DNA of 64,000 nucleotides, taken from positions 195,407 through 259,406 of the forward strand of contig CP011212.1 in NCBI GenBank assembly GCA_001029715.1, written 5' to 3'. Positions 6,573 to 62,166 of this stretch are shown here, piece after piece (the stretch's first letter is position 1; each line of letters starts with the position of its first letter). Position numbers and translations under genes: made by a program. The stretch comes from a candidate division TM6 bacterium GW2011_GWF2_28_16. GTDB lineage: Bacteria > Patescibacteriota > Microgenomatia > UBA1400 > PJMF01. Below the pieces are notes generated by a model, which saw only the letters and a list, made by a program, of their open reading frames with translations, was not told the origin of the DNA and ran no database searches.

Positions 6573-7508
6573 ATGTATGATGTTATTTCAATCGGTTCAT
6601 CTTTGCTTGATATTTTTATCAAGTCTAATGATTTAGAATCTGATCGCGATGGCGATAGGCAAATTTTGACCTATGGCGAAAAATTAGAATTAACAGATTT
6701 TCACATTGTTACTGGTGGTGGAGGTAGTAACACTGCGGTTGCTTTTTCTCGCTTAGGATTAAACACAGCTGTAATTTCTGAAACGGGACGTGATGATTTT
6801 TCTGGATTGATTACTTCTGATTTTCAAAAAGAGGATGTGTCCACAAGCTTACTTATTCAAGAAAAATTAGAAAAGACTGGTGGCTCAGTTGCTTTGGTAG
6901 CAAAAAATTCAGAAAGAGTAATCATGGTGCACCGAGGGGCAGCTTCAATGTTAGATCCTTTTGACATTCCAGCTTTCTGGTTATCTAAAAGCAGATGGAT
7001 TCATCTTTCTAGTATCGGTGGTAACCCACAGACTTTAAGTAAGATTTTTAAGGTATTAAATAACAATCAAGAGACTAAAATGTCTTGGAATCCTGGTAAA
7101 AAAGAACTGCAGTTGTTAGTTGAAGAAAAATTTGCCATAGATCAGATTCCTTGCGAAATCTTTTTTGTGAATGAAGAAGAATGGGCTTTAGTGGAGCCAT
7201 TACACGAAGAAATTTTATTGAATTTTCCACAAGTAGTTATTACTAAAGGTAAAAAAGGTGGTGAGGTTCATCTTTTTGGTAAGAAAACTTTTGAATATGT
7301 GGGTGAGGCTAGTTCTTCAGTTGATAGCACTGGGGCGGGCGATGCTTTTGCCTCTGCCTATGTAGCAGCTATTTTAGATGGCAGAGATGTCCCAATGGCC
7401 ATTGCGTGGGGAGTTAAAAATGCTGGCAATGTAGTAGCTTATTTTGGAGGGAAAACTGGCTTGCTTCGTAAAACGCAAATCTTGGAGTTAACAAAGGATC
7501 AAAAATAG
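6573..7508 (+). CDS. PfkB-family carbohydrate/ribokinase-like kinase
   Basis: TGGGGSNTAVAF and the anion-hole motif TGAGDAFASAY. Confidence 0.75.
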   Translation: MYDVISIGSSLLDIFIKSNDLESDRDGDRQILTYGEKLELTDFHIVTGGGGSNTAVAFSRLGLNTAVISETGRDDFSGLITSDFQKEDVSTSLLIQEKLEKTGGSVALVAKNSERVIMVHRGAASMLDPFDIPAFWLSKSRWIHLSSIGGNPQTLSKIFKVLNNNQETKMSWNPGKKELQLLVEEKFAIDQIPCEIFFVNEEEWALVEPLHEEILLNFPQVVITKGKKGGEVHLFGKKTFEYVGEASSSVDSTGAGDAFASAYVAAILDGRDVPMAIAWGVKNAGNVVAYFGGKTGLLRKTQILELTKDQK

Positions 7509-7527
7509 TGTTTAATTAATTAGCCAT

Positions 7528-8031
7528 ATGAAAAAAGTCTTCTTTATTTTATTTTTACTTGTCTCTTTTTTGCTTTTTCCAAATAGTGCTCGTGCTATGG
7601 AATTAACCAAAATTGGAACTTTAGATATTACTGGTGATGGAATTGGTTCGACTGTCTCTGCTTATACTTATCCGTTGCGCTCTTTTAGTCTTTATGGTTT
7701 AGCTAACGCCTCCAGTTCAGTAGCTATTAAAGTTGATGATGTAACTTATAGCGCAACTGCTGATAAAGATGGTGCTTGGTCCACTTATCTTTCCAATTTA
7801 ACTTATGATGCTCATGGTGTAGCAATTAGTTCTACTGGTCAAACTAGTTTAAATTTTACTTTGACGATCAGTTCTGCTTCGGCAACGACTACTCCAACTG
7901 CTACTCCGACTAGTACGGCTACAACCACTAGTACTTTGCCTAGCGCAGGTGCCACAGAAAACACTTTTTTAATTGTCGCTCTAGCTTTATTTTCAATTGG
8001 CTTGGGTGTAGCAGTTAAATACAGAGATTAG
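7528..8031 (+). CDS. secreted surface protein with LPSAG sortase sorting signal
   Basis: Signal peptide, Thr-rich linker, LPSAG, hydrophobic stretch, then a basic tail KYRD. Confidence 0.6.
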   Translation: MKKVFFILFLLVSFLLFPNSARAMELTKIGTLDITGDGIGSTVSAYTYPLRSFSLYGLANASSSVAIKVDDVTYSATADKDGAWSTYLSNLTYDAHGVAISSTGQTSLNFTLTISSASATTTPTATPTSTATTTSTLPSAGATENTFLIVALALFSIGLGVAVKYRD

Positions 8032-8050
8032 TTTACCTTAATAGAAATTT

Positions 8051-9109
8051 ATGTCAGATTTTCGCGAACTTCTTAACCAAGAAATTGCTGCATTAGCAGC
8101 TAAAGTTGAACAGGGAGAACTTCCCGATGAGATGCGTTACCAGCTCAAAAAAGAAATGGTGGCGCTACAGCGTAGTGTTGAACTTGGCAATTATGATGAG
8201 AAATATGAAAAAGTTTCTCATTATGTCGATTGGTGTTTGCGCATTCCTTTTGGTAAAAAAACTGAAGATACTTTAGATATCCAAAAAGCCCAAGAGATTT
8301 TTAATCAACATCACTATGGTATGCAGGAGGTCAAAGATCGTTTTTTGGAATATTTAGCAGTTTTAAATTTACAAAAAAATAATCTTCAAGATGAAAAGTT
8401 TTCTGCTCCAATTTTGCTCTTAGTTGGCTTGGTTGGTACTGGAAAAACTACTTTTGCTTATTCGTTAGCTGAAGCCTTGGGTCGCAAACTAGTACGTATT
8501 CCTTTTGGTGGTATGGGTAGTTCTAAAGAATTACGCGGTAATTCACGCTTACTTTTGGGTTCAGAGCCAGGCAAAGTTTTAAAAGGAGTTTGCGAATCTG
8601 GAGTAATGAATCCAATTATTTTACTTGATGAAATTGATCGCGCTTCTGATGATGCCAATATGGATATCATGGGTGTTTTAGTGGAATTGCTTGATCCAGC
8701 CCAGAATCATGCTTTTACTGATGACTATGTTAATTATCCAATTGATCTCTCCCAAGCGATTTTCTTAGCAACAGCCAACAATACTCGTAAGATTGCGACT
8801 GCTGTAATGGATCGTATGGAAAAAATTAGCATGCCTTCTTATACTGATGAGGAAAAAATCGCAATTGCTAAGAAATATATCATGCCAAAAGTTCTTAAGG
8901 AAGTTGGTTTAAAAACTGAGCAGTTTGTTATTCGTGACGAAATGTGGATTAAGATGGTTCGTCCGCTTGGTTTTGATGCTGGTATTCGTACTTTGCAGAG
9001 AACTATTCAGGGCGCGGCGCGTAAAGCGGCGCGCATTATTGTTGAAGGTAAATATAACAAGGTTGAAATTGGTCAAGAAAATTACAAAATTTTCTTACCC
9101 TCCTACTAG
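8051..9109 (+). CDS. Lon-like AAA+ ATPase lacking N-terminal and protease domains
   Basis: Collinear with the Lon long helix and ATPase module (HYGMQEVKDRFLEYLAV, GLVGTGKTT, LLDEIDR, LDPAQNHAFTD). The ORF ends where the Lon protease domain would start. Confidence 0.7.
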   Translation: MSDFRELLNQEIAALAAKVEQGELPDEMRYQLKKEMVALQRSVELGNYDEKYEKVSHYVDWCLRIPFGKKTEDTLDIQKAQEIFNQHHYGMQEVKDRFLEYLAVLNLQKNNLQDEKFSAPILLLVGLVGTGKTTFAYSLAEALGRKLVRIPFGGMGSSKELRGNSRLLLGSEPGKVLKGVCESGVMNPIILLDEIDRASDDANMDIMGVLVELLDPAQNHAFTDDYVNYPIDLSQAIFLATANNTRKIATAVMDRMEKISMPSYTDEEKIAIAKKYIMPKVLKEVGLKTEQFVIRDEMWIKMVRPLGFDAGIRTLQRTIQGAARKAARIIVEGKYNKVEIGQENYKIFLPSY

Positions 9110-9135
9110 GCTCAATTCTTGATATAATATTTTTA

Positions 9136-9759
9136 ATGCATTTTACTGATTTAAAGACGCTCAAAGCAGATCTAGAAAAGAATTTTCAAAATTTACCCTT
9201 GGTAGAAAAAGTTGAAGACATCGTTCATGGTGAAGGTAATGAGAATGCTAGTGTGATGCTAATTGGTGAAGCTCCTGGTTATAATGAGAGCGTGCAGAGA
9301 AGACCTTTTGTTGGTCGCTCTGGGCAGTTGTTGCGTAAAGTTTTAGCCGAGAGTGGTTTACAAGAAGATCAAGTTTATATTAGCAACATTGTCAAAGTTC
9401 GCCCACCAGACAATCGTGATCCTTTACCAGCAGAAATTTTAGCTTTTAAGCCTTATCTAGATGCAGAAATTCAAATTATCAAGCCAAAACTAATTATGAC
9501 TTTGGGGCGTTTCAGTATGGCCAAGTTTTTGTCAGATGTAAAAATCTCGCAGATTCATGGACGTTTACATAAGGTAAAATGGAATGACCAGCTCTTATTT
9601 ATTTTGCCAATGTATCATCCCGCCGCCGCTTTGAGAGCGACTAGAGTAAAAGATTCATTTATCAAGGATTTTGCCAAAATAGATAAAATTGTGGATTGGG
9701 TGGAAAACACCAAAGACGAAGCCTTTTTTAGCGAAACAGTTAAAGAAGCATTATTATAA
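9136..9759 (+). CDS. uracil-DNA glycosylase family 4
   Basis: GEAPGYNE..RPFVGRSG family-4 motifs and a C-terminal HPAA-like motif. Confidence 0.8.
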   Translation: MHFTDLKTLKADLEKNFQNLPLVEKVEDIVHGEGNENASVMLIGEAPGYNESVQRRPFVGRSGQLLRKVLAESGLQEDQVYISNIVKVRPPDNRDPLPAEILAFKPYLDAEIQIIKPKLIMTLGRFSMAKFLSDVKISQIHGRLHKVKWNDQLLFILPMYHPAAALRATRVKDSFIKDFAKIDKIVDWVENTKDEAFFSETVKEALL

Positions 9760-9780
9760 AAAATTATTTAACAATAAATT

Positions 9781-9879
9781 AAAAAGAAAGGAACGAATTT
9801 ATTTTTCGATGCATTGCGCCACCCGAGTGAACGTCTTCACTCGAGAGACGCTGAGGAGAAAAATATAATTCGTGAAATT
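9781..9879 (+). promoter_or_regulatory. conserved ~100-nt leader element (copy A) upstream of rnj, with hairpin 9824-9843
   Basis: Near-identical to 34759-34862 upstream of tuf. The hairpin CGAGTGAA-CGTC-TTCACTCG covaries with copy B. Confidence 0.6.
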
Positions 9880-11541
9880 ATGTCCAAACTAAAACTTTTA
9901 CCCCTAGGGGGAATGGGTGGTGTCACCCAAAATATGTATTTATATCAATATGAAAAAGAAATTCTAATTGTCGATTGTGGCATTGGTTTTCCTGACATGT
10001 ATATGCCAGGCGTCGATACTTTGATTCCTGATATTAGTTATTTACAAGATCAGCTCGAACAGGGCGCTAAAATTGTTGGTATGATTCTTAGTCATGGCCA
10101 TGACGATCATATTGGAGCTTTACCTTATTTATTGGGTGAATTGCCAAGCTTCCCAATTTATGGTTCACCTTTGACGATTGGTTTTGCGCGCGATCGTATC
10201 TCAGAGAAGAAACTCGATCGTGACATGCAAGCTATTTCTGACGAGAGAATTACTAAAATTAGCGATTTCTTTTCATTTGAATTAATTCCAATGACTCATT
10301 CTGTACCAGATACAAGACACATTGTAATTGATACACCAGTCGGTAGAATTTATCACGGCAGTGATTTTAAACTTGATAAAGCTCCAGTTGATGGCATTCT
10401 GTCAGACATGGAAGAAATCAAAAGAGTTGCCGATCAGGGTATTTTGTTAGCCATGATTGATTGTTTGCGTGTTGAAAGAGATCAGTGGACTAAATCAGAA
10501 TCAACTATTACTCCAGTTTTCGAAGAAGAAATGGCCAATGTCAAAGGTAAGATTTTGGTTACCTTGATGAGTTCCCATATTCATCGTATTCAACAGGTAG
10601 TTAATGTTTGTGAAGCTATTGGACGCAAAGTGGTTTTTGTGGGTCGCAGTGTTGAGCAAAATATGGTTGTAGCCACTATGCTAAAGAAATTACGCATGGC
10701 TCCTGGAACTCAAGTGGATAAGAAACACATTAGCGAAGTTCCAGATAATCAGCTCTGTGTTATTATTGCTGGCAGTCAGGGTCAAGAGGGTTCATCGCTA
10801 GTGCGAGCCGTTTATGGCGAGCATCGTATTATCCAAATTTCTCCAGAGGATAAAGTGATTTTTTCAGCTGACGCTATTCCTGGCAATGAAATTAATTATT
10901 ATGCAGCTATTGATGAATTGTCTTCCAATAATGTTGATGTGGTTTATCCAACCATTAACTCAGGCATTCATAGCTCTGGTCATGCTAGTGCCATTGAGCA
11001 AAGAGAAATTGTCGAAGTTTTAAACGCTAAATACATCATGCCAATTGGTGGTGCCAATCGCCATCGCGCTCTTTTCAAAAAACTTGTGGCTCCAGTTCTC
11101 AATTACGATAATCGCCATGTTTTATTGCCTGATTCTGGTCAAGTGCTTGGTATCGACGAAAACGGTATCCAAGTAGTTGATGAAGTTTTACTCAATGCTA
11201 AAGCAGTTGATGGTTTAGGAATTGGTGATGTTGGACCAGTGGTTTTGTCAGATCGCCTCTCTCTTTCTAAGTCAGGTATTATTGTTTTGATTATTCCAAG
11301 AACCAAAGGACAATTTGACTTCAAAGAAATGAAAGTCATTTCTCGAGGCTTTGTCTTTATGAAAGAAGCTGATGAAGTCATTCAATTTATTAAGCAAAAA
11401 ACTGCCGAGATAGTGGGTGATGAAGCACAGAATATCAAAGATGACGATCTCAAGAGAAAAATTGAGCGTCGTTTGGCAAAAAAACTATATAAAGTGATTC
11501 GTAGAGAACCAATTATTGTACCGGTAATTTTGGAAATGTAG
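9880..11541 (+). CDS. rnj: ribonuclease J
   Basis: Metallo-beta-lactamase HGHDDHIGALPYL, beta-CASP and C-terminal domains. ATG at 9880 (MSKLKLLPLGG) is preferred over the upstream TTG. Confidence 0.85.
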   Translation: MSKLKLLPLGGMGGVTQNMYLYQYEKEILIVDCGIGFPDMYMPGVDTLIPDISYLQDQLEQGAKIVGMILSHGHDDHIGALPYLLGELPSFPIYGSPLTIGFARDRISEKKLDRDMQAISDERITKISDFFSFELIPMTHSVPDTRHIVIDTPVGRIYHGSDFKLDKAPVDGILSDMEEIKRVADQGILLAMIDCLRVERDQWTKSESTITPVFEEEMANVKGKILVTLMSSHIHRIQQVVNVCEAIGRKVVFVGRSVEQNMVVATMLKKLRMAPGTQVDKKHISEVPDNQLCVIIAGSQGQEGSSLVRAVYGEHRIIQISPEDKVIFSADAIPGNEINYYAAIDELSSNNVDVVYPTINSGIHSSGHASAIEQREIVEVLNAKYIMPIGGANRHRALFKKLVAPVLNYDNRHVLLPDSGQVLGIDENGIQVVDEVLLNAKAVDGLGIGDVGPVVLSDRLSLSKSGIIVLIIPRTKGQFDFKEMKVISRGFVFMKEADEVIQFIKQKTAEIVGDEAQNIKDDDLKRKIERRLAKKLYKVIRREPIIVPVILEM

Positions 11542-11644: not shown

Positions 11645-13843
11645 ATGGCTAATTTTAAACGCAGCAAAAGAAAAAAACGCAAAGCAATTCGTCTTAAAAT
11701 GCGTAGCGACACTAGTTATTCAGTAGTGGCAGTTCTATTGATTTTGCTTGGTTTATTGGTCTTAATTTCATTTACCGGTCAAGGTCAATTGCTTATTTTC
11801 ATCAATGATATCCTGTCTTTAAAGTTTGGTTTATCAATGTTGTTTTTACCTTTTGTTTTGATTTCTGCAGGCTTAGTAATGCTACGTAGTAAACATGCTT
11901 GGTCAAAACCAACTATTTTACTTGGCACGATTTTACTAATGCTTGGTACCATGGGCGTTACTAAAAGTGGACAAGTAGGTTCAAGTCTTTTTGTTAATTT
12001 TGCCAGACTAATTACTGAATCTGGTTCCTATGCTTTTTTTAGCGCCATTGTTTTAATTGGTATTTTAATTTTGTCCCAATCTTCTTTATTGGAGCTGGTT
12101 GAATTACTTGGCAAATTATTTAAGAAGAGAGCCAAAGATAAAAAAGAAGCTAAAGATATTTTTGCTGATCAAGTCAGCGAAAAGGAAATCACTAAAGCCA
12201 AGGGTTTTTCTATTCCTAATTTTGGTTTTGGATTTAGTAAAGACAAAGGTCTTAAAAAAGGCTCTTCTTTTAATGAGGAAATTGAACAAGATAACAGTAG
12301 TGCTAAGGCAATTATTGAAGACGAGCTTAAAAAAGAAACCTCTTCTTCCAATCTTGATAATCAAGAAGCTCTTAACGCCTCTTCAGTGCCAATGATGTGG
12401 GATTATCCACCTTTATCCTTACTCTCACAAAAGTCTGGTGGCAAAGCCGACCGTGGAGATGTCAAAGGCAACGCAGCGATTATTGAAAACACTTTGGATT
12501 CTTTTGGTATTCAAGCCAAAGTGACTGAATATAATCCTGGTCCAGCAGTTACTCAATATGCGCTAGATATTAACAAAGGTACTCGTTTATCTAAGATTAC
12601 TGCTCTATCAACTGATTTAGCTTTAGCTTTATCTGCTCCAACTGGACAAATTCGTATCGAGGCGCCAATTCCAGGTCGTAATTTAGTTGGTGTTGAAGTG
12701 CCAAATCGTAGTGCTGAGTATGTCACTCTCAAAACCATGTTGTCATCTCCAGAGCTTAAAAAGCATAAATCTAAATTAGCCGTGGCTCTTGGCATAGATG
12801 TAGCTGGTCGTCCATCGATTGTTGATATTGCGGCGATGCCTCATTTATTAATCGCTGGTTCAACTGGTTCTGGTAAATCTGTTTGTATTAACTCTTTTAT
12901 GTGCTCAATTTTGTTTAGAGCTACGCCAGAAGAAGTTAAGTTTATTTTGGTTGATCCTAAGCGTGTCGAATTAACTGGCTACAATGACATTCCTCATTTA
13001 TTAACTCCAGTAATTGTTGAGCCAAATAAGGTTGTTTCTGCACTCAAGTGGGCCTGTCAAACTATGGACAAGCGCTACAAAATGTTGGCAGAAGTAGGTG
13101 TCAAAAATATTAATGAATATAATGAACTAGCTGGTTTGGCTTCCATGCCAAACATCGTGATTGTGATTGATGAGTTGGCTGATGTAATGCTCTTTGCGCC
13201 TTCAGAAGTTGAAGAGAGTGTGACGCGTATTGCTCAGATGGCTCGTGCCGTTGGTATCCATTTAGTTTTGGCTACTCAGCGTCCTTCTGTGGATGTCTTG
13301 ACCGGACTGATTAAAGCTAACGTACCAACTCGTATCGCTTTTAACGTGGCTTCGATGATGGACAGTCGTGTCATTTTGGATAGTCCAGGTGCAGAAAAAT
13401 TGCTTGGTCGTGGTGATATGCTTTTCCAAGCTCCAGACAAACCAAAGCCATCTCGTGTCCAGGGTACTTTTGTCAGTGTTCAAGAAACCAATAATTTGAT
13501 TAATTTCTTAAAATCCCAGGGTCAAAAACCTCATTATGAGGAAGAAATTACTACCAAGTATCAGTCTAGCAAAGTTACTGGGGGCAGTATGGGTTCTGAT
13601 GATGGTGGTGGATCAGATATTGATGATAAATGTGAGGCAGCGGCGCGGCTCTTTTTGACCGCCGATAAGGCTTCCTCCTCTTTGATTCAGCGTCGCATGT
13701 CTGTTGGCTATGCCCGCGCCGCTAGAATTCTAGATCAACTCTACGAACTCGGCATGGTTGGCCCTCCAGATGGCAGTAAGCCAAGAGAAGTCAACAACGG
13801 CAAAATTAGAGAGTTTTTGATGAGCAAAGAACAAGAAGGATAA
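11645..13843 (+). CDS. ftsK: DNA translocase FtsK/SpoIIIE
   Basis: N-terminal TM segments, Walker A GSTGSGKS, and a C-terminal gamma winged-helix (LIQRRMSVGYARAARILDQL). Confidence 0.85.
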   Translation: MANFKRSKRKKRKAIRLKMRSDTSYSVVAVLLILLGLLVLISFTGQGQLLIFINDILSLKFGLSMLFLPFVLISAGLVMLRSKHAWSKPTILLGTILLMLGTMGVTKSGQVGSSLFVNFARLITESGSYAFFSAIVLIGILILSQSSLLELVELLGKLFKKRAKDKKEAKDIFADQVSEKEITKAKGFSIPNFGFGFSKDKGLKKGSSFNEEIEQDNSSAKAIIEDELKKETSSSNLDNQEALNASSVPMMWDYPPLSLLSQKSGGKADRGDVKGNAAIIENTLDSFGIQAKVTEYNPGPAVTQYALDINKGTRLSKITALSTDLALALSAPTGQIRIEAPIPGRNLVGVEVPNRSAEYVTLKTMLSSPELKKHKSKLAVALGIDVAGRPSIVDIAAMPHLLIAGSTGSGKSVCINSFMCSILFRATPEEVKFILVDPKRVELTGYNDIPHLLTPVIVEPNKVVSALKWACQTMDKRYKMLAEVGVKNINEYNELAGLASMPNIVIVIDELADVMLFAPSEVEESVTRIAQMARAVGIHLVLATQRPSVDVLTGLIKANVPTRIAFNVASMMDSRVILDSPGAEKLLGRGDMLFQAPDKPKPSRVQGTFVSVQETNNLINFLKSQGQKPHYEEEITTKYQSSKVTGGSMGSDDGGGSDIDDKCEAAARLFLTADKASSSLIQRRMSVGYARAARILDQLYELGMVGPPDGSKPREVNNGKIREFLMSKEQEG

Positions 13844-13845
13844 AG

Positions 13846-14243
13846 TGGAGATGGCGGGTTATGAACCCGCGTCCGTATCCAAATGTTTAAATAGCTTCTA
13901 CAGATTTAGTTTGCTTTCGATTAAAGATCAATAAGTTGTACAAACAAACTTTTACTGACCTATCCGCGTTATGTCTTAGAACTTTTTGCAACGCGAGTTC
14001 AAAAAGTTAGCCAAGTGACTGAGTTTTCACTTACCTATCTGCATCACTAACACAAATAAATAAATGCCTAAATTAGCAATAAGCTAAAGCAGGAGCATTG
14101 AAACTGGCAACAAAATTGCTGACAGCAGTCTTTGCTTTTGAGATTATGTTATCGACATTTATTGTCCGGGCCTTTTTAATGTCTTTGGTCCAAAGACAAT
14201 CTGCGACTATCTAAAAGATGTTACGTCAAAGCAATACATCCCC
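13846..14243 (-). ncRNA. ssrA: tmRNA (SsrA)
   Basis: On the minus strand, the 5' GGGGATG pairs with the 3' CATCTCC to give G3:U70, and the discriminator is A. The T-arm is GCGGG-TTCATAA-CCCGC. An internal 44-codon stop-free frame ends ...PALAYC-TAA. Length is 398 nt. Confidence 0.7.
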
Positions 14244-15038: not shown

Positions 15039-15112
15039 GGACAATTAGCTCAGTTGGTTAGAGCGCACGATTCACATTCGTGAGGTCACAAGTTCGAGTC
15101 TTGTATTGTCCA
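15039..15112 (+). tRNA. tRNA-Val (anticodon CAC)
   Basis: Cloverleaf with acceptor GGACAAT/ATTGTCC, D-arm GCTCAGTTGGTTAGAGC, anticodon loop TTCACAT and T-arm ACAAGTTCGAGTCTTGT. No encoded CCA. Confidence 0.85.
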
Positions 15113-34662: not shown

Positions 34663-34758
34663 ATAATCCAAATCGCTTGTTTTGCCTGTTTTTTTAAGGT
34701 AAAATACAAGCTCGACAGCAATAATAATTGTTATTTTATAAATTAGTAAACAAATAAA

Positions 34759-34862
34759 AAAAAGAAAGGAGTGAATTTATTTTTAGATGCATTTGATCAC
34801 CTGAGTAAACGTCTTTACTCAAGAGATCACTGAGGATAAAAATAAGATTCACGACATACATT
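34759..34862 (+). promoter_or_regulatory. conserved ~100-nt leader element (copy B) upstream of tuf, with hairpin 34802-34821
   Basis: Aligns base-for-base with 9781-9879. The hairpin TGAGTAAA-CGTC-TTTACTCA carries two compensatory base-pair swaps relative to copy A. Confidence 0.6.
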
Positions 34863-36059
34863 ATGGCAGACGCAAAAAAATTTGTCAGAAGTAAGCCGCA
34901 TGTTAACATTGGTACCATTGGTCACGTTGATCACGGTAAAACCACTTTAACTGCAGCTATTACTCAAACCTTAGCTAAACAGGTTCCATGTGAAACCAAT
35001 AAAGCTATGCTTTACTCAGATGTTGAGAGCAGTCAAGAAGAAGTTGCTAGAGGTATTACCATCAATATTAAACATATTGAATATGAAACCTCAAAACGTC
35101 ACTATGCTCATATTGATGCTCCAGGTCATGCTGATTACATCAAAAATATGATTACTGGCGCTGCTCAAATGGATGGTGCTATCTTAGTCGTAGCCGCTAC
35201 TGATGGCCCAATGCCTCAAACTCGCGAGCACATTTTGTTAGCTAATCAGGTTAACGTGCCAAAGATCGTTGTTGCTTTAAATAAATGTGACATGGTCGAT
35301 GATGCAGAATTATTAGATTTAGTTGAATTTGAAGTTCGTGATCTTTTGACTAAATACAATTACGATGGAGAGAATACCCCAGTCATTCGCGTTAGTGCAG
35401 CTAAAGCTTTGGCAGGTGATGCAGATGCTCAGGCCAAAATCATGGAATTAATGGATGCAGTAGATAGCTACATTCCAGAGCCAGTTCGTGATATTGATAA
35501 GCCTTTTAGTATGTACATCGAAGATGTTTTTTCAATCAAAGGTCGTGGCACTGTCGTTACTGGTCGTATTGAAAGTGGTGTCGTCAAAGTTGGCGAAAAC
35601 ATTGATATCATTGGTATTCGTCCTAAAGTATCATCTACCGTTACTGGTGTTGAAATGTTTAGAAAAATGCTCGATCAAGGTCAAGCAGGCGATAACGTTG
35701 GTATTTTGCTTCGTGGCATCGAAAAAGATGGTGTTGAAAGAGGTCAGCTCTTGGCTAAGCCAGGTTCTGCTTCTGCTCACAAGAAATTCGAAGCTGAAGT
35801 TTATATTTTGAAAAAAGAAGAAGGTGGTCGTCACAAACCTTTCTTCTCTGGTTACAAACCTCAGTTCTACATTAGAACAACTGATGTTACCGGTGAAATT
35901 AAACTTCCAGATGGAGTTGAAATGGTTATGCCTGGTGATAATGCTAAGATGACTGTTGAACTCTTAGTGCCAGTCGCTGTTACCGAGGGTTTCCGCTTCG
36001 CTATTCGTGAAGGTGGATTAACTGTTGGCGCAGGTGCTGTGACCAAGATTTTGGATTAA
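34863..36059 (+). CDS. tuf: elongation factor Tu
   Basis: [36 protein letters not shown]. Confidence 0.97.
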
Positions 36060-36091: not shown

Positions 36092-36116
36092 ACCCCGCTT
36101 TATAGCGGGGTTTTTC
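36092..36116 (+). terminator. rho-independent terminator after tuf
   Basis: ACCCCGCT-TTATA-GCGGGGT hairpin followed by TTTTT. Confidence 0.8.
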
Positions 36117-36330
36117 TTTATTAGTTACTCTTGCTCTCCCTACTTCCTTCTGGTACAATACAATCCTCTCGAGAAATATGGGAGTAATTTGTTTTTTTGA
36201 GCATTTCTAAAGAAAACTGTTTGAAGAAATATACAAATTTCCCCTGTACAAGAGGGAGAGAATTAGATATAATCGCGTTTTGTGATTTAAGAGATCACAA
36301 ACATAGAGAAAGCAATAAATTAAAAATAGT

Positions 36331-62083: not shown

Positions 62084-62166
62084 CGGAGATGACAGGATTC
62101 GAACCTGCGAAGCCGTGAGGCTCACGCTTTCCAAGCGTGTGCAATTGACCGCTATGCGACATCTCC
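62084..62166 (-). tRNA. tRNA-Ser (anticodon GGA), type II with long variable arm
   Basis: Acceptor GGAGATG/CATCTCC, anticodon loop TTGGAAA, variable arm AGCCTCACGGCTTC and T-arm GCAGGTTCGAATCCTGT. No encoded CCA. Confidence 0.85.

Follow-up and report, generated by a model that had tools for sequence, protein, structure and literature searches.

What is the element that lies between fusA and tuf, directly before the tuf start codon, and that recurs upstream of rnj in the same 64-kb stretch of DNA (64,000 nt in full; hereafter the window)? The initial annotation took it to be a conserved leader of tuf with a second copy elsewhere, consistent with translational control of two highly expressed genes. 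As described below, the element is a dispersed module, gained and lost among relatives, that splits the ribosome-binding site of its host gene; it is not a leader conserved with tuf.

Two homologous copies were found in the window, one upstream of rnj (9777-9882; copy A) and one upstream of tuf (34755-34865; copy B). With about 84-85% identity, the two rank first among the repeat families of the window. A 32-nt pattern derived from both copies matched those two sites only within the window, with 0.00 matches expected in shuffles, and a covariance model detected each copy at about 122 bits (E about 1e-25) and nothing further in the window. The second copy, previously placed at 9781-9879 and adjoining the rnj ATG at 9880, was confirmed as homologous and structured. 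The 20-nt hairpin TGAGTAAA-CGTC-TTTACTCA, recognised at 34802-34821 upstream of the tuf ATG at 34863, is also present, but it is the apical helix (P3) of an 82-nt hairpin spanning 34771-34852. Similarly, the similarity between the copies does run up to the ATG, as had been noted, but what reaches the start codon is the 3' strand of the basal helix (P1) and a short tail, and not a separately constrained start region.

The changes that distinguish the two window copies in P1, P2 and P3 are compensatory. The Shine-Dalgarno (SD) sequence is located 5' and the start codon 3' of the hairpin, so that the two stand on opposite sides of the structure (Table 1). The last G of GAAAGGAG in the tuf copy can also make the first pair of P1, and the SD of this copy has a mean unpaired probability of 0.85 as assessed by the partition function. 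The promoter-like site of the fusA-tuf spacer is nearly identical in L001, a relative without the element (L numbers designate loci from other genomes), and the N-terminus of EF-Tu (MADAKK..) is likewise common to relatives that lack it. Searches of the window and of six copy-bearing loci against Rfam 15 at the gathering threshold returned tmRNA and tRNA matches only; in E-value mode, both window copies gave only chance-level matches (E of at least 0.05). Elsewhere in the window, an intrinsic-terminator-like hairpin with a T run is found downstream of tuf (36093-36116), the leader of rpsJ (S10 operon) contains a hairpin TTTGTGATttaagagATCACAAA (36279-36301) downstream of a TATAAT-like site, and the first ORF (79-618) is a truncated gene.

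Table 1. Positions, in the window, of the parts of both element copies and of associated genes (copy A, rnj; copy B, tuf).
Feature	Position	Strand	Remarks
Promoter-like TTGTTT-17 nt-TAAAAT, fusA-tuf spacer, 5' of element	34677-34705	+	Predicted from sequence; not listed by the consensus scan
Extended SD GAAAGGAG, directly 5' of copy B hairpin	34764-34771	+	GAAAGGA invariant in 8/8 canonical copies
Copy B, whole 82-nt hairpin	34771-34852	+	MFE and centroid folds, z = -4.33; covariation
Copy B, P1 (15 bp)	34771-34785 with 34837-34852	+	
Copy B, main internal loop, GAUGCAUU opposite CUGAGGA	34786-34793 opposite 34830-34836	+	
Copy B, P2 (5 bp)	34794-34798 with 34825-34829	+	
Copy B, 3x3 loop, ACC opposite AGA	34799-34801 opposite 34822-34824	+	
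Copy B, P3 (8 bp)	34802-34809 with 34814-34821	+	Tetraloop CGUC, 34810-34813
Single-stranded tail GACAUACAUU, hairpin base to tuf AUG (10 nt)	34853-34862	+	
tuf (EF-Tu, 398 aa)	34863-36059	+	Start codon putatively served by split ribosome-binding site
Copy A, SD GAAAGGA	9786-9792	+	
Copy A, 81-nt hairpin	9793-9873	+	Fold z = -2.92
Copy A, P1	9793-9807 with 9858-9873	+	
Copy A, internal loop, GAUGCAUU opposite UGAGGA	9808-9815 opposite 9852-9857	+	ACC/AGA loop also present
Copy A, P2	9816-9820 with 9847-9851	+	
Copy A, P3	9824-9831 with 9836-9843	+	Loop CGUC, 9832-9835
Tail GAAAUU (9874-9879, 6 nt), then rnj (RNase J, 553 aa from ATG 9880)	9874-11541	+	
tmRNA gene	13843-14243	-	Ordinary
tRNA gene	15039-15112	+	Ordinary
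tRNA gene	62084-62166	-	Ordinary

A family of hairpins with a constant place

Further copies were sought on both strands with patterns made of hairpin-internal positions only; neither the SD nor the ATG was included. Scan 1 used both sides of the main internal loop together with the adjacent T5/A5 runs of P1, and scan 2 the loop nucleotides only. The scans recovered an rplK copy in Pacebacteria UBA6188 (L005), a dnaK copy in MiH-14oct19-109 (L006), rplK (L008) and nusA (L011) copies at two loci of one 751-kb contig, and a nusA copy in another metagenome (L009). Protein-guided look-ups yielded another canonical rplK copy (L030) as well as three degenerate copies: L027 (rnj) has an 81-nt hairpin with an intact P1, mutated loops and a decayed apex; L031 (rplK) has lost the apex and measures about 60 nt; and L032 (rplK) retains only a 21-nt mini-hairpin, still located between GAAAGGAG and the ATG. 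The host genes of the family are tuf, rnj, rplK, nusA and dnaK. Two other metagenome matches, L007 and L010, were rejected as coding-like chance matches without a hairpin. A strict pattern gave 2 matches in 185,579 species genomes, and no copies beyond those identified were detected in any fetched locus; since the model was run on the window and on fetched loci rather than on whole genomes, both the size of the family and the range of its host genes are underestimated. No pattern match was obtained in IMG/VR and no blastn match in phage or plasmid collections, and an origin from a phage or plasmid found no support in these searches. A gene on the opposite strand was also rejected: the reverse strand reaches no more than about 23 bits, owing to palindromy, and all copies are co-oriented with their genes. 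We conclude that the family consists of 81-82-nt RNA hairpins in a clade of ultrasmall, Microgenomates-type CPR/Patescibacteria.

Separate minimum free energy (MFE) folds of each copy gave the same hairpin, with three coaxial helices and two internal loops, at a dG of -23 to -31 kcal/mol and with z from -2.5 to -4.4. When four copies were aligned with MAFFT, 97.9% of the cells were paired and 10 pairs showed double changes. With the eight canonical copies, 96.9% of the cells were paired and compensatory (double) changes occurred in 18 of 24 pairs; no shuffle out of 500 equalled this, and slid registers were at most 56% paired. P2 consists of 5 bp in every copy after register correction. P3 shows compensatory changes in six of its eight pairs, and the P3 of L009 is wholly different in sequence with its pairing kept. 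The P1 and P3 stems contain three G.U pairs and no A.C pairs. The SD, the tail and the AUG are mostly unpaired across copies (partition function); one dominant fold per copy was obtained and no competing pairing of the SD or AUG was predicted, although a negative prediction of this kind carries little weight.

The layout of the copies is constant: AGAAAGGA(G) is followed by the hairpin, usually by GA and 4-8 nt, and then by AUG (GUG in one copy). All 11 copies, eight canonical and three degenerate, lie between GAAAGGA and the start codon in the orientation of the gene. In full-length copies, the hairpin measures 80-82 nt and the tail 5-10 nt; GA is found directly 3' of the hairpin in all but one of the eight canonical copies, and the start of GAAAGGA is 91-99 nt from the AUG in the seven canonical copies for which the true SD was located automatically. 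Where relatives lack the hairpin, the SD shows the ordinary spacing of 6-9 nt. Removal of the hairpin from the rnj site on paper leaves AAAGGA/GAAAUUAUG (slashes mark the junction), a textbook ribosome-binding site, and the window rnj sequence then reads AAAGAAAGGA/GAAATTATG. More generally, empty sites read GAAAG/A and filled sites GAAAG/GA-hairpin-GA. A generic scan for an SD, a hairpin and an AUG at ORF starts in about 0.5 Mb found no unrelated case at real gene starts, and so the arrangement is no general habit of these genomes. Purine-rich sites of the GAAAG(G) type 6-9 nt before the start codon are common in the clade (window 15588, 27814, 46942, 50544 and 60128; L032:17142-17175). Potential empty targets are thus widespread, yet only two are occupied in the window.

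The element also affects gene prediction. Gene callers start RNase J at a TTG inside the element (9814), which gives a protein of 575 aa (P0121) instead of 553 aa. They likewise read on through the element at L11, which lengthens that protein to 150-164 aa, as in MHCITRASVLAREMLR... The false N-termini are the element read in frame (P0121, P0241, P0250, P0265 and P0268) and provide a cheap detector of it. The element thus causes wrong N-terminal extensions of RNase J and L11 in public CPR annotations.

Gain and loss among relatives

Judged by its best EF-Tu matches, the host of the window is a Microgenomates-type member of the CPR/Patescibacteria; it belongs to the same species as GCA_018817305.1 and GCA_000991725.1. 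The tuf copy is kept in six contigs of that species (L012-L017), one of which carries a single substitution; this change, from AGAGATCA to AGATATCA in strain GCA_018817305.1 (L013:9893-10000), breaks the C-G pair that closes P2. If the element were a conserved leader of tuf, it should be found upstream of tuf elsewhere in the lineage; only these same-species contigs carry one. The fusA-tuf spacers of the nearest genomes outside the species, L001, L002 and L003, whose EF-Tu proteins are 93, 87 and 85% identical to that of the window, have no hairpin and present the ordinary sites AAAGAAAGAAAACAAATATG, AAAAGGAGATAAGTTTATG and AAAAGGAGATAAAAGTTATG, respectively. L004, which codes for the same EF-Tu protein as L003, gave no covariance-model match. 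L001 and the window are collinear at about 85% identity, and the sole break in the alignment is at the element, with 94 nt of the window (34768-34861) opposite 5 nt. The reading as a conserved leader of tuf was therefore not borne out.

The same pattern was seen at other host genes. The rnj locus of the relative L022 reads AAAGAAAGAAAAAATTATG; exactly 81 nt of the window sequence (9794-9874, with a placement ambiguity of 1 nt) are absent, and no other sequence replaces them. The rnj gene of L024 is also without the hairpin, and L022 and L024 represent the two closest other lineages. No target-site duplication is evident at rnj, where the filled site exceeds the empty one by 81 nt and no more, and elsewhere only a possible GA was found. 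L011 and L018, the latter from the species of the window, are 97.8% identical, and the nusA copy is present in L011 only; in L018, the promoter and the terminator-like hairpin are identical but are followed by AAAAAGAAAGATTTTTATG. A dnaK element is present in L006 and absent in its relative L011. Thus, presence/absence polymorphism at orthologous sites occurs at tuf, rnj, nusA (there within a species) and dnaK. The identity between L011 and L018 is 91% on the left of the nusA element (L011:6128-6723) and 97.8% on its right (6840-11183). With only 91% identity in the left flank, this drop suggests a recombination tract or breakpoint next to the element, and possibly transfer by recombination.

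Sharing a host gene does not make copies from different genomes more similar than copies located at different genes: the nusA copies of L009 and L011 are 63% identical, and the window rnj copy and the rplK copy of L005 are 86% identical. The rplK element is kept with full loops in genomes that are about 73-79% identical in DNA (L005, L008 and L030). At rplK and rnj, a decay series could be assembled, from the full element (L030) to the apex-deleted form (L031) and the 21-nt mini-hairpin (L032), with L027 showing mutated loops and an intact P1. Decay from the tip leaves a smaller hairpin.

Function and origin of the element

The proposal that the element controls the translation of two highly expressed genes holds as to location: it sits in the initiation regions of tuf and rnj, and with homologous, structured copies in both, an effect on translation is the natural expectation. 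A regulator shared by tuf and rnj, in contrast, is not what we see, since copies at rplK, nusA and dnaK in other genomes mark the element as a dispersed module. The data may reflect regulation or mere compatibility with translation.

The best explanation, which we consider reasonably probable, is a looped-out split ribosome-binding site, reused as a dispersed hairpin module that is gained and lost. The hairpin would fold on the mRNA and loop out on the platform of the 30S subunit. The looping would restore a functional distance between the SD (AGAAAGGAG, putatively complementary to the 3' end of 16S rRNA) and the start codon, which are 88-98 nt apart linearly, and the ribosome would initiate over the folded hairpin. 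As it is the folded hairpin that would restore this distance, the translation of tuf and rnj would depend on it. The module would spread by insertion or conversion into ribosome-binding sites of the GAAAG type, and the internal loops (GAUGCAUU/UGAGGA and ACC/AGA) may bind a putative partner, which could be a regulatory factor or an enzyme that mobilises the module. The invariant position, the constant tail, the accessible SD and AUG and a decay that always leaves a hairpin would all fit a split site. Against it, many genes of the window have a weak SD or none, so that these ribosomes may not need a juxtaposed SD, and the hairpin could simply be unwound. In addition, the 81-nt insert is several times longer than the inserts of the phage T4 precedents, and the model leaves the conservation of the loop nucleotides unexplained. 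Nor did a target-site duplication, a transposase or any other means of spread come to light.

In genes 38 and 25 of phage T4, an intervening structure brings the SD closer to the AUG (from 22 to 5 nt in gene 38 and from 27 to 11 nt in gene 25), and mutations that destabilise this structure lower initiation (PMC3014915, citing Nivinskas et al. 1999; Malys & Nivinskas 2009). For the present element, the natural compensatory changes in 18 of 24 pairs are the sole proxy for such an effect. As in these genes, the SD and AUG are linearly too distant here, with an intervening hairpin to restore a functional distance, and the insertion is lineage-specific, present in close relatives and absent from more distant ones. 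The SD-start separation of the family, however, is far beyond the functional spacing of 5-11 nt in T4, and the hairpin alone, with three helices and two internal loops, measures 81-82 nt, as compared to total spacings of 22 and 27 nt. Moreover, the T4 cases are single phage genes, whereas here one homologous module is found at no fewer than five chromosomal housekeeping genes in several CPR genomes, with polymorphism within a species; also unlike in T4, the split site is known here from sequence and folding only. For thrS of E. coli, it was shown that the 30S subunit accommodates a long hairpin without unfolding it, the site being split by the hairpin (PMC3936740). The present element resembles thrS in having a long hairpin in the ribosome-binding region, which in thrS is also a protein-binding operator. 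Yet thrS is a single autoregulated gene, and here several host genes are involved. The placement differs as well, since the thrS hairpin precedes the SD and is not flanked by SD and AUG.

Our literature search found no description of such an element in Patescibacteria, nor of a repeat inserted in ribosome-binding sites, and the literature found on a hairpin looped out between SD and start codon concerned phage T4 genes only. The same looping principle would here be implemented by a homologous, reused 81-nt module at the genes for EF-Tu, RNase J, L11, NusA and DnaK. If initiation indeed proceeds over an 81-nt folded insert, this would stretch the presumed tolerance of the bacterial 30S subunit, and the filled and empty alleles that occur naturally would be available for testing. 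The gain and loss of the element also raise the question of how a sequence lands precisely inside ribosome-binding sites. Very little is known about gene regulation in the CPR/Patescibacteria.

It also seems possible, although we think it unlikely, that the element is purely selfish, a palindromic repeat comparable to MITEs, REPs or Rickettsia palindromic elements. It would insert into GAAAG-type sites, survive only where its hairpin loops out without harm, and offer the host neither benefit nor regulation. The pairing of the stems would be kept for the sole reason that an unfolded insert would part the SD from the AUG. The presence/absence differences among close relatives and within one species, the clean 81-nt indel at rnj, the decayed copies that lose loops or apex and keep a hairpin, the lack of any closer likeness between copies at the same gene (63% as compared to 86% in the example above) and the drop in flank identity beside the nusA copy, which suggests transfer by recombination, are all in line with this idea. 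The copy number, however, is very low, with two copies in the 64-kb window, no further one in any fetched locus and the two strict-pattern matches among 185,579 species genomes; a single orientation and position in 11 of 11 copies is unlike a random inserter; neither a target-site duplication nor, in the 10-kb flanks available, a transposase came to notice; at rplK, complete loops are retained across the identity range of about 73-79%; and no phage or plasmid copy was found. The Rickettsia palindromic elements (RPEs), the Correia elements of Neisseria, REP/BIME and ERIC are dispersed palindromic repeats, that is, short imperfect palindromes that fold as RNA when transcribed and show presence/absence polymorphism; RPEs occur inside coding regions. 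Judged by their description, these repeats share with the element the short imperfect palindrome, the presence/absence pattern and the tolerance in unusual places, and differ from it in that the element has a very low copy number, a strict orientation and placement in ribosome-binding sites, and no target-site duplication. The many copies in either orientation and at varied intergenic positions that characterise a MITE were not seen in the window and the fetched loci.

The conserved loops, which a looped-out split site does not account for, suggest a partner that would bind them. The unpaired GAUGCAUU, CACC, AGAGA and UGAGGA are identical in all eight canonical copies, an invariance that is inflated, and in part a matter of ascertainment, since five of the eight owe their detection to patterns in which the loops were obligatory. 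In the copies detected independently of such patterns, the loops are kept in three (window tuf, window rnj and L030) and lost in three (L027, L031 and L032). A partner of the loops, be it a regulatory protein, the ribosome, a ligand or a mobilising enzyme, is plausible on these grounds. Only CACC being invariant, we treated the likeness of class II GAUCACCU to the 3' end of 16S rRNA as chance. A K-turn, as suggested by the C/D-box-like GAUG../CUGA, was also rejected: G.A/A.G can form atop P1, but 6 further nt lie on the opposite strand, and with 4-5 nt instead of 3 in the loop of the 3' strand, there is no 3-nt bulge next to the tandem G.A.

A translational operator or riboswitch-like sensor, in which a protein or small molecule on the loops would stabilise or distort the hairpin and so tune the initiation of tuf, rnj, rplK, nusA and dnaK together, up or down, is in our view rather doubtful. 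The four loop segments are identical in window tuf, window rnj and L030 at an overall identity of 69-80% and with differing stems, the element is in the initiation region, and the host genes are all abundant core-machinery genes, as an operator would have it. But the set of host genes varies between genomes and even strains, the host's own species has no nusA copy (L018) and close relatives have no tuf and rnj copies, unlike a stable regulon. Some lineages have the hairpin and not the loops, and no switching structure was predicted, the SD and AUG being accessible in a single dominant fold; nor is the loop a K-turn or the element a match to any Rfam family. Like cis-regulatory 5' leaders (ribosomal-protein leaders and riboswitches), the element precedes highly expressed genes as a structured 5' UTR segment that covaries and has conserved nucleotides outside its helices; it differs from them in having no stable tie to one gene family, no predicted switching structure and no Rfam match. 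A related idea, to which we give similarly little credence, is that of a portable translational operator: a site-specific mobile hairpin that would insert 3' of GAAAG without duplication and whose loops would bind a trans-acting factor. If true, any highly expressed gene could be recruited to a common circuit, and a regulon could be built by insertion in the genome-reduced CPR.

Less probable still is an element for mRNA processing or stability, in which the quasi-continuous helix of about 30 bp would serve as a substrate for RNase III or, jointly with the strong SD, protect the 5' end of the mRNA from RNase J, as the STAB-SD (GAAAGGAGG) does for the cryIIIA mRNA of B. thuringiensis. The long coaxial helix broken by internal loops, the strong SD-like GAAAGGAG at its 5' base and the fact that one host gene codes for RNase J itself speak for this possibility; however, cleavage in P1 would part the SD from the AUG, and a stabiliser has no need of the constant tail of 5-10 nt.

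We regard it as very improbable that no RNA structure is involved and that the element acts at the DNA level, as an internal promoter or protein-binding palindrome, or codes for a leader peptide from the invariant GAUGCAUU AUG. The 3' arm does contain a -35-like TCGAGA/TCAAGA and an A/T-rich -10, and the promoter scan lists TCGAGA-17-TATAAT in copy A, but the covariation of P1 leaves the -10-like hexamer without conservation, and copy B gave no scan match; an internal promoter, flagged in copy A only, was judged unlikely. The presence of G.U without A.C pairs and the sense orientation of all copies favour a sense transcript. The loop AUG does not vary, and some copies can be read from it in frame into the gene, but the frame that it opens ends after 2-5 codons in class II copies, extends over 19-24 codons in class I, and in neither window copy matches the frame of the gene; with neither frame nor length conserved, the leader peptide was rejected.

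Other structures upstream of nusA and rplK

Besides the hairpin module, further conserved structures are found upstream in the leaders of rplK and nusA. The nusA leaders (L011:6655-6725; L018:528-597; L009:9680-9750, minus strand) have a promoter-like site, TTTGCTATAAT, followed by a block, TAAGAGGAGGACTGTTGAAAGACAAGTCCTTTTTT, with 100% conservation among the nusA leaders compared. In this block, an SD-like AGAGGAGGA precedes a terminator-like hairpin and its U run. We consider this block a candidate nusA attenuator; it had no Rfam match in L011 or L009. In the rplK leaders (L005:4100-4125; L008:5410-5440; L030:6496-6522; L031:4172-4196; L032:9918-9944), a promoter-like site, ATGCTATAAT, is followed by GGTGGATTAGGGATCCGCGCTTCTCA, the stem of which covaries (GGAT..ATCC as compared to GGC..GCC). 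This is a candidate L11/L1 operon leader located upstream of the hairpin module, and no Rfam match was obtained for it at the gathering threshold in L005, L008 and L030. Finally, toxin-antitoxin pairs of the BrnT/BrnA type are inserted beside the nusG-rplK-rplA cluster in two genomes (L030:5464-6013 and 8052-8593; L032:11378-11919).
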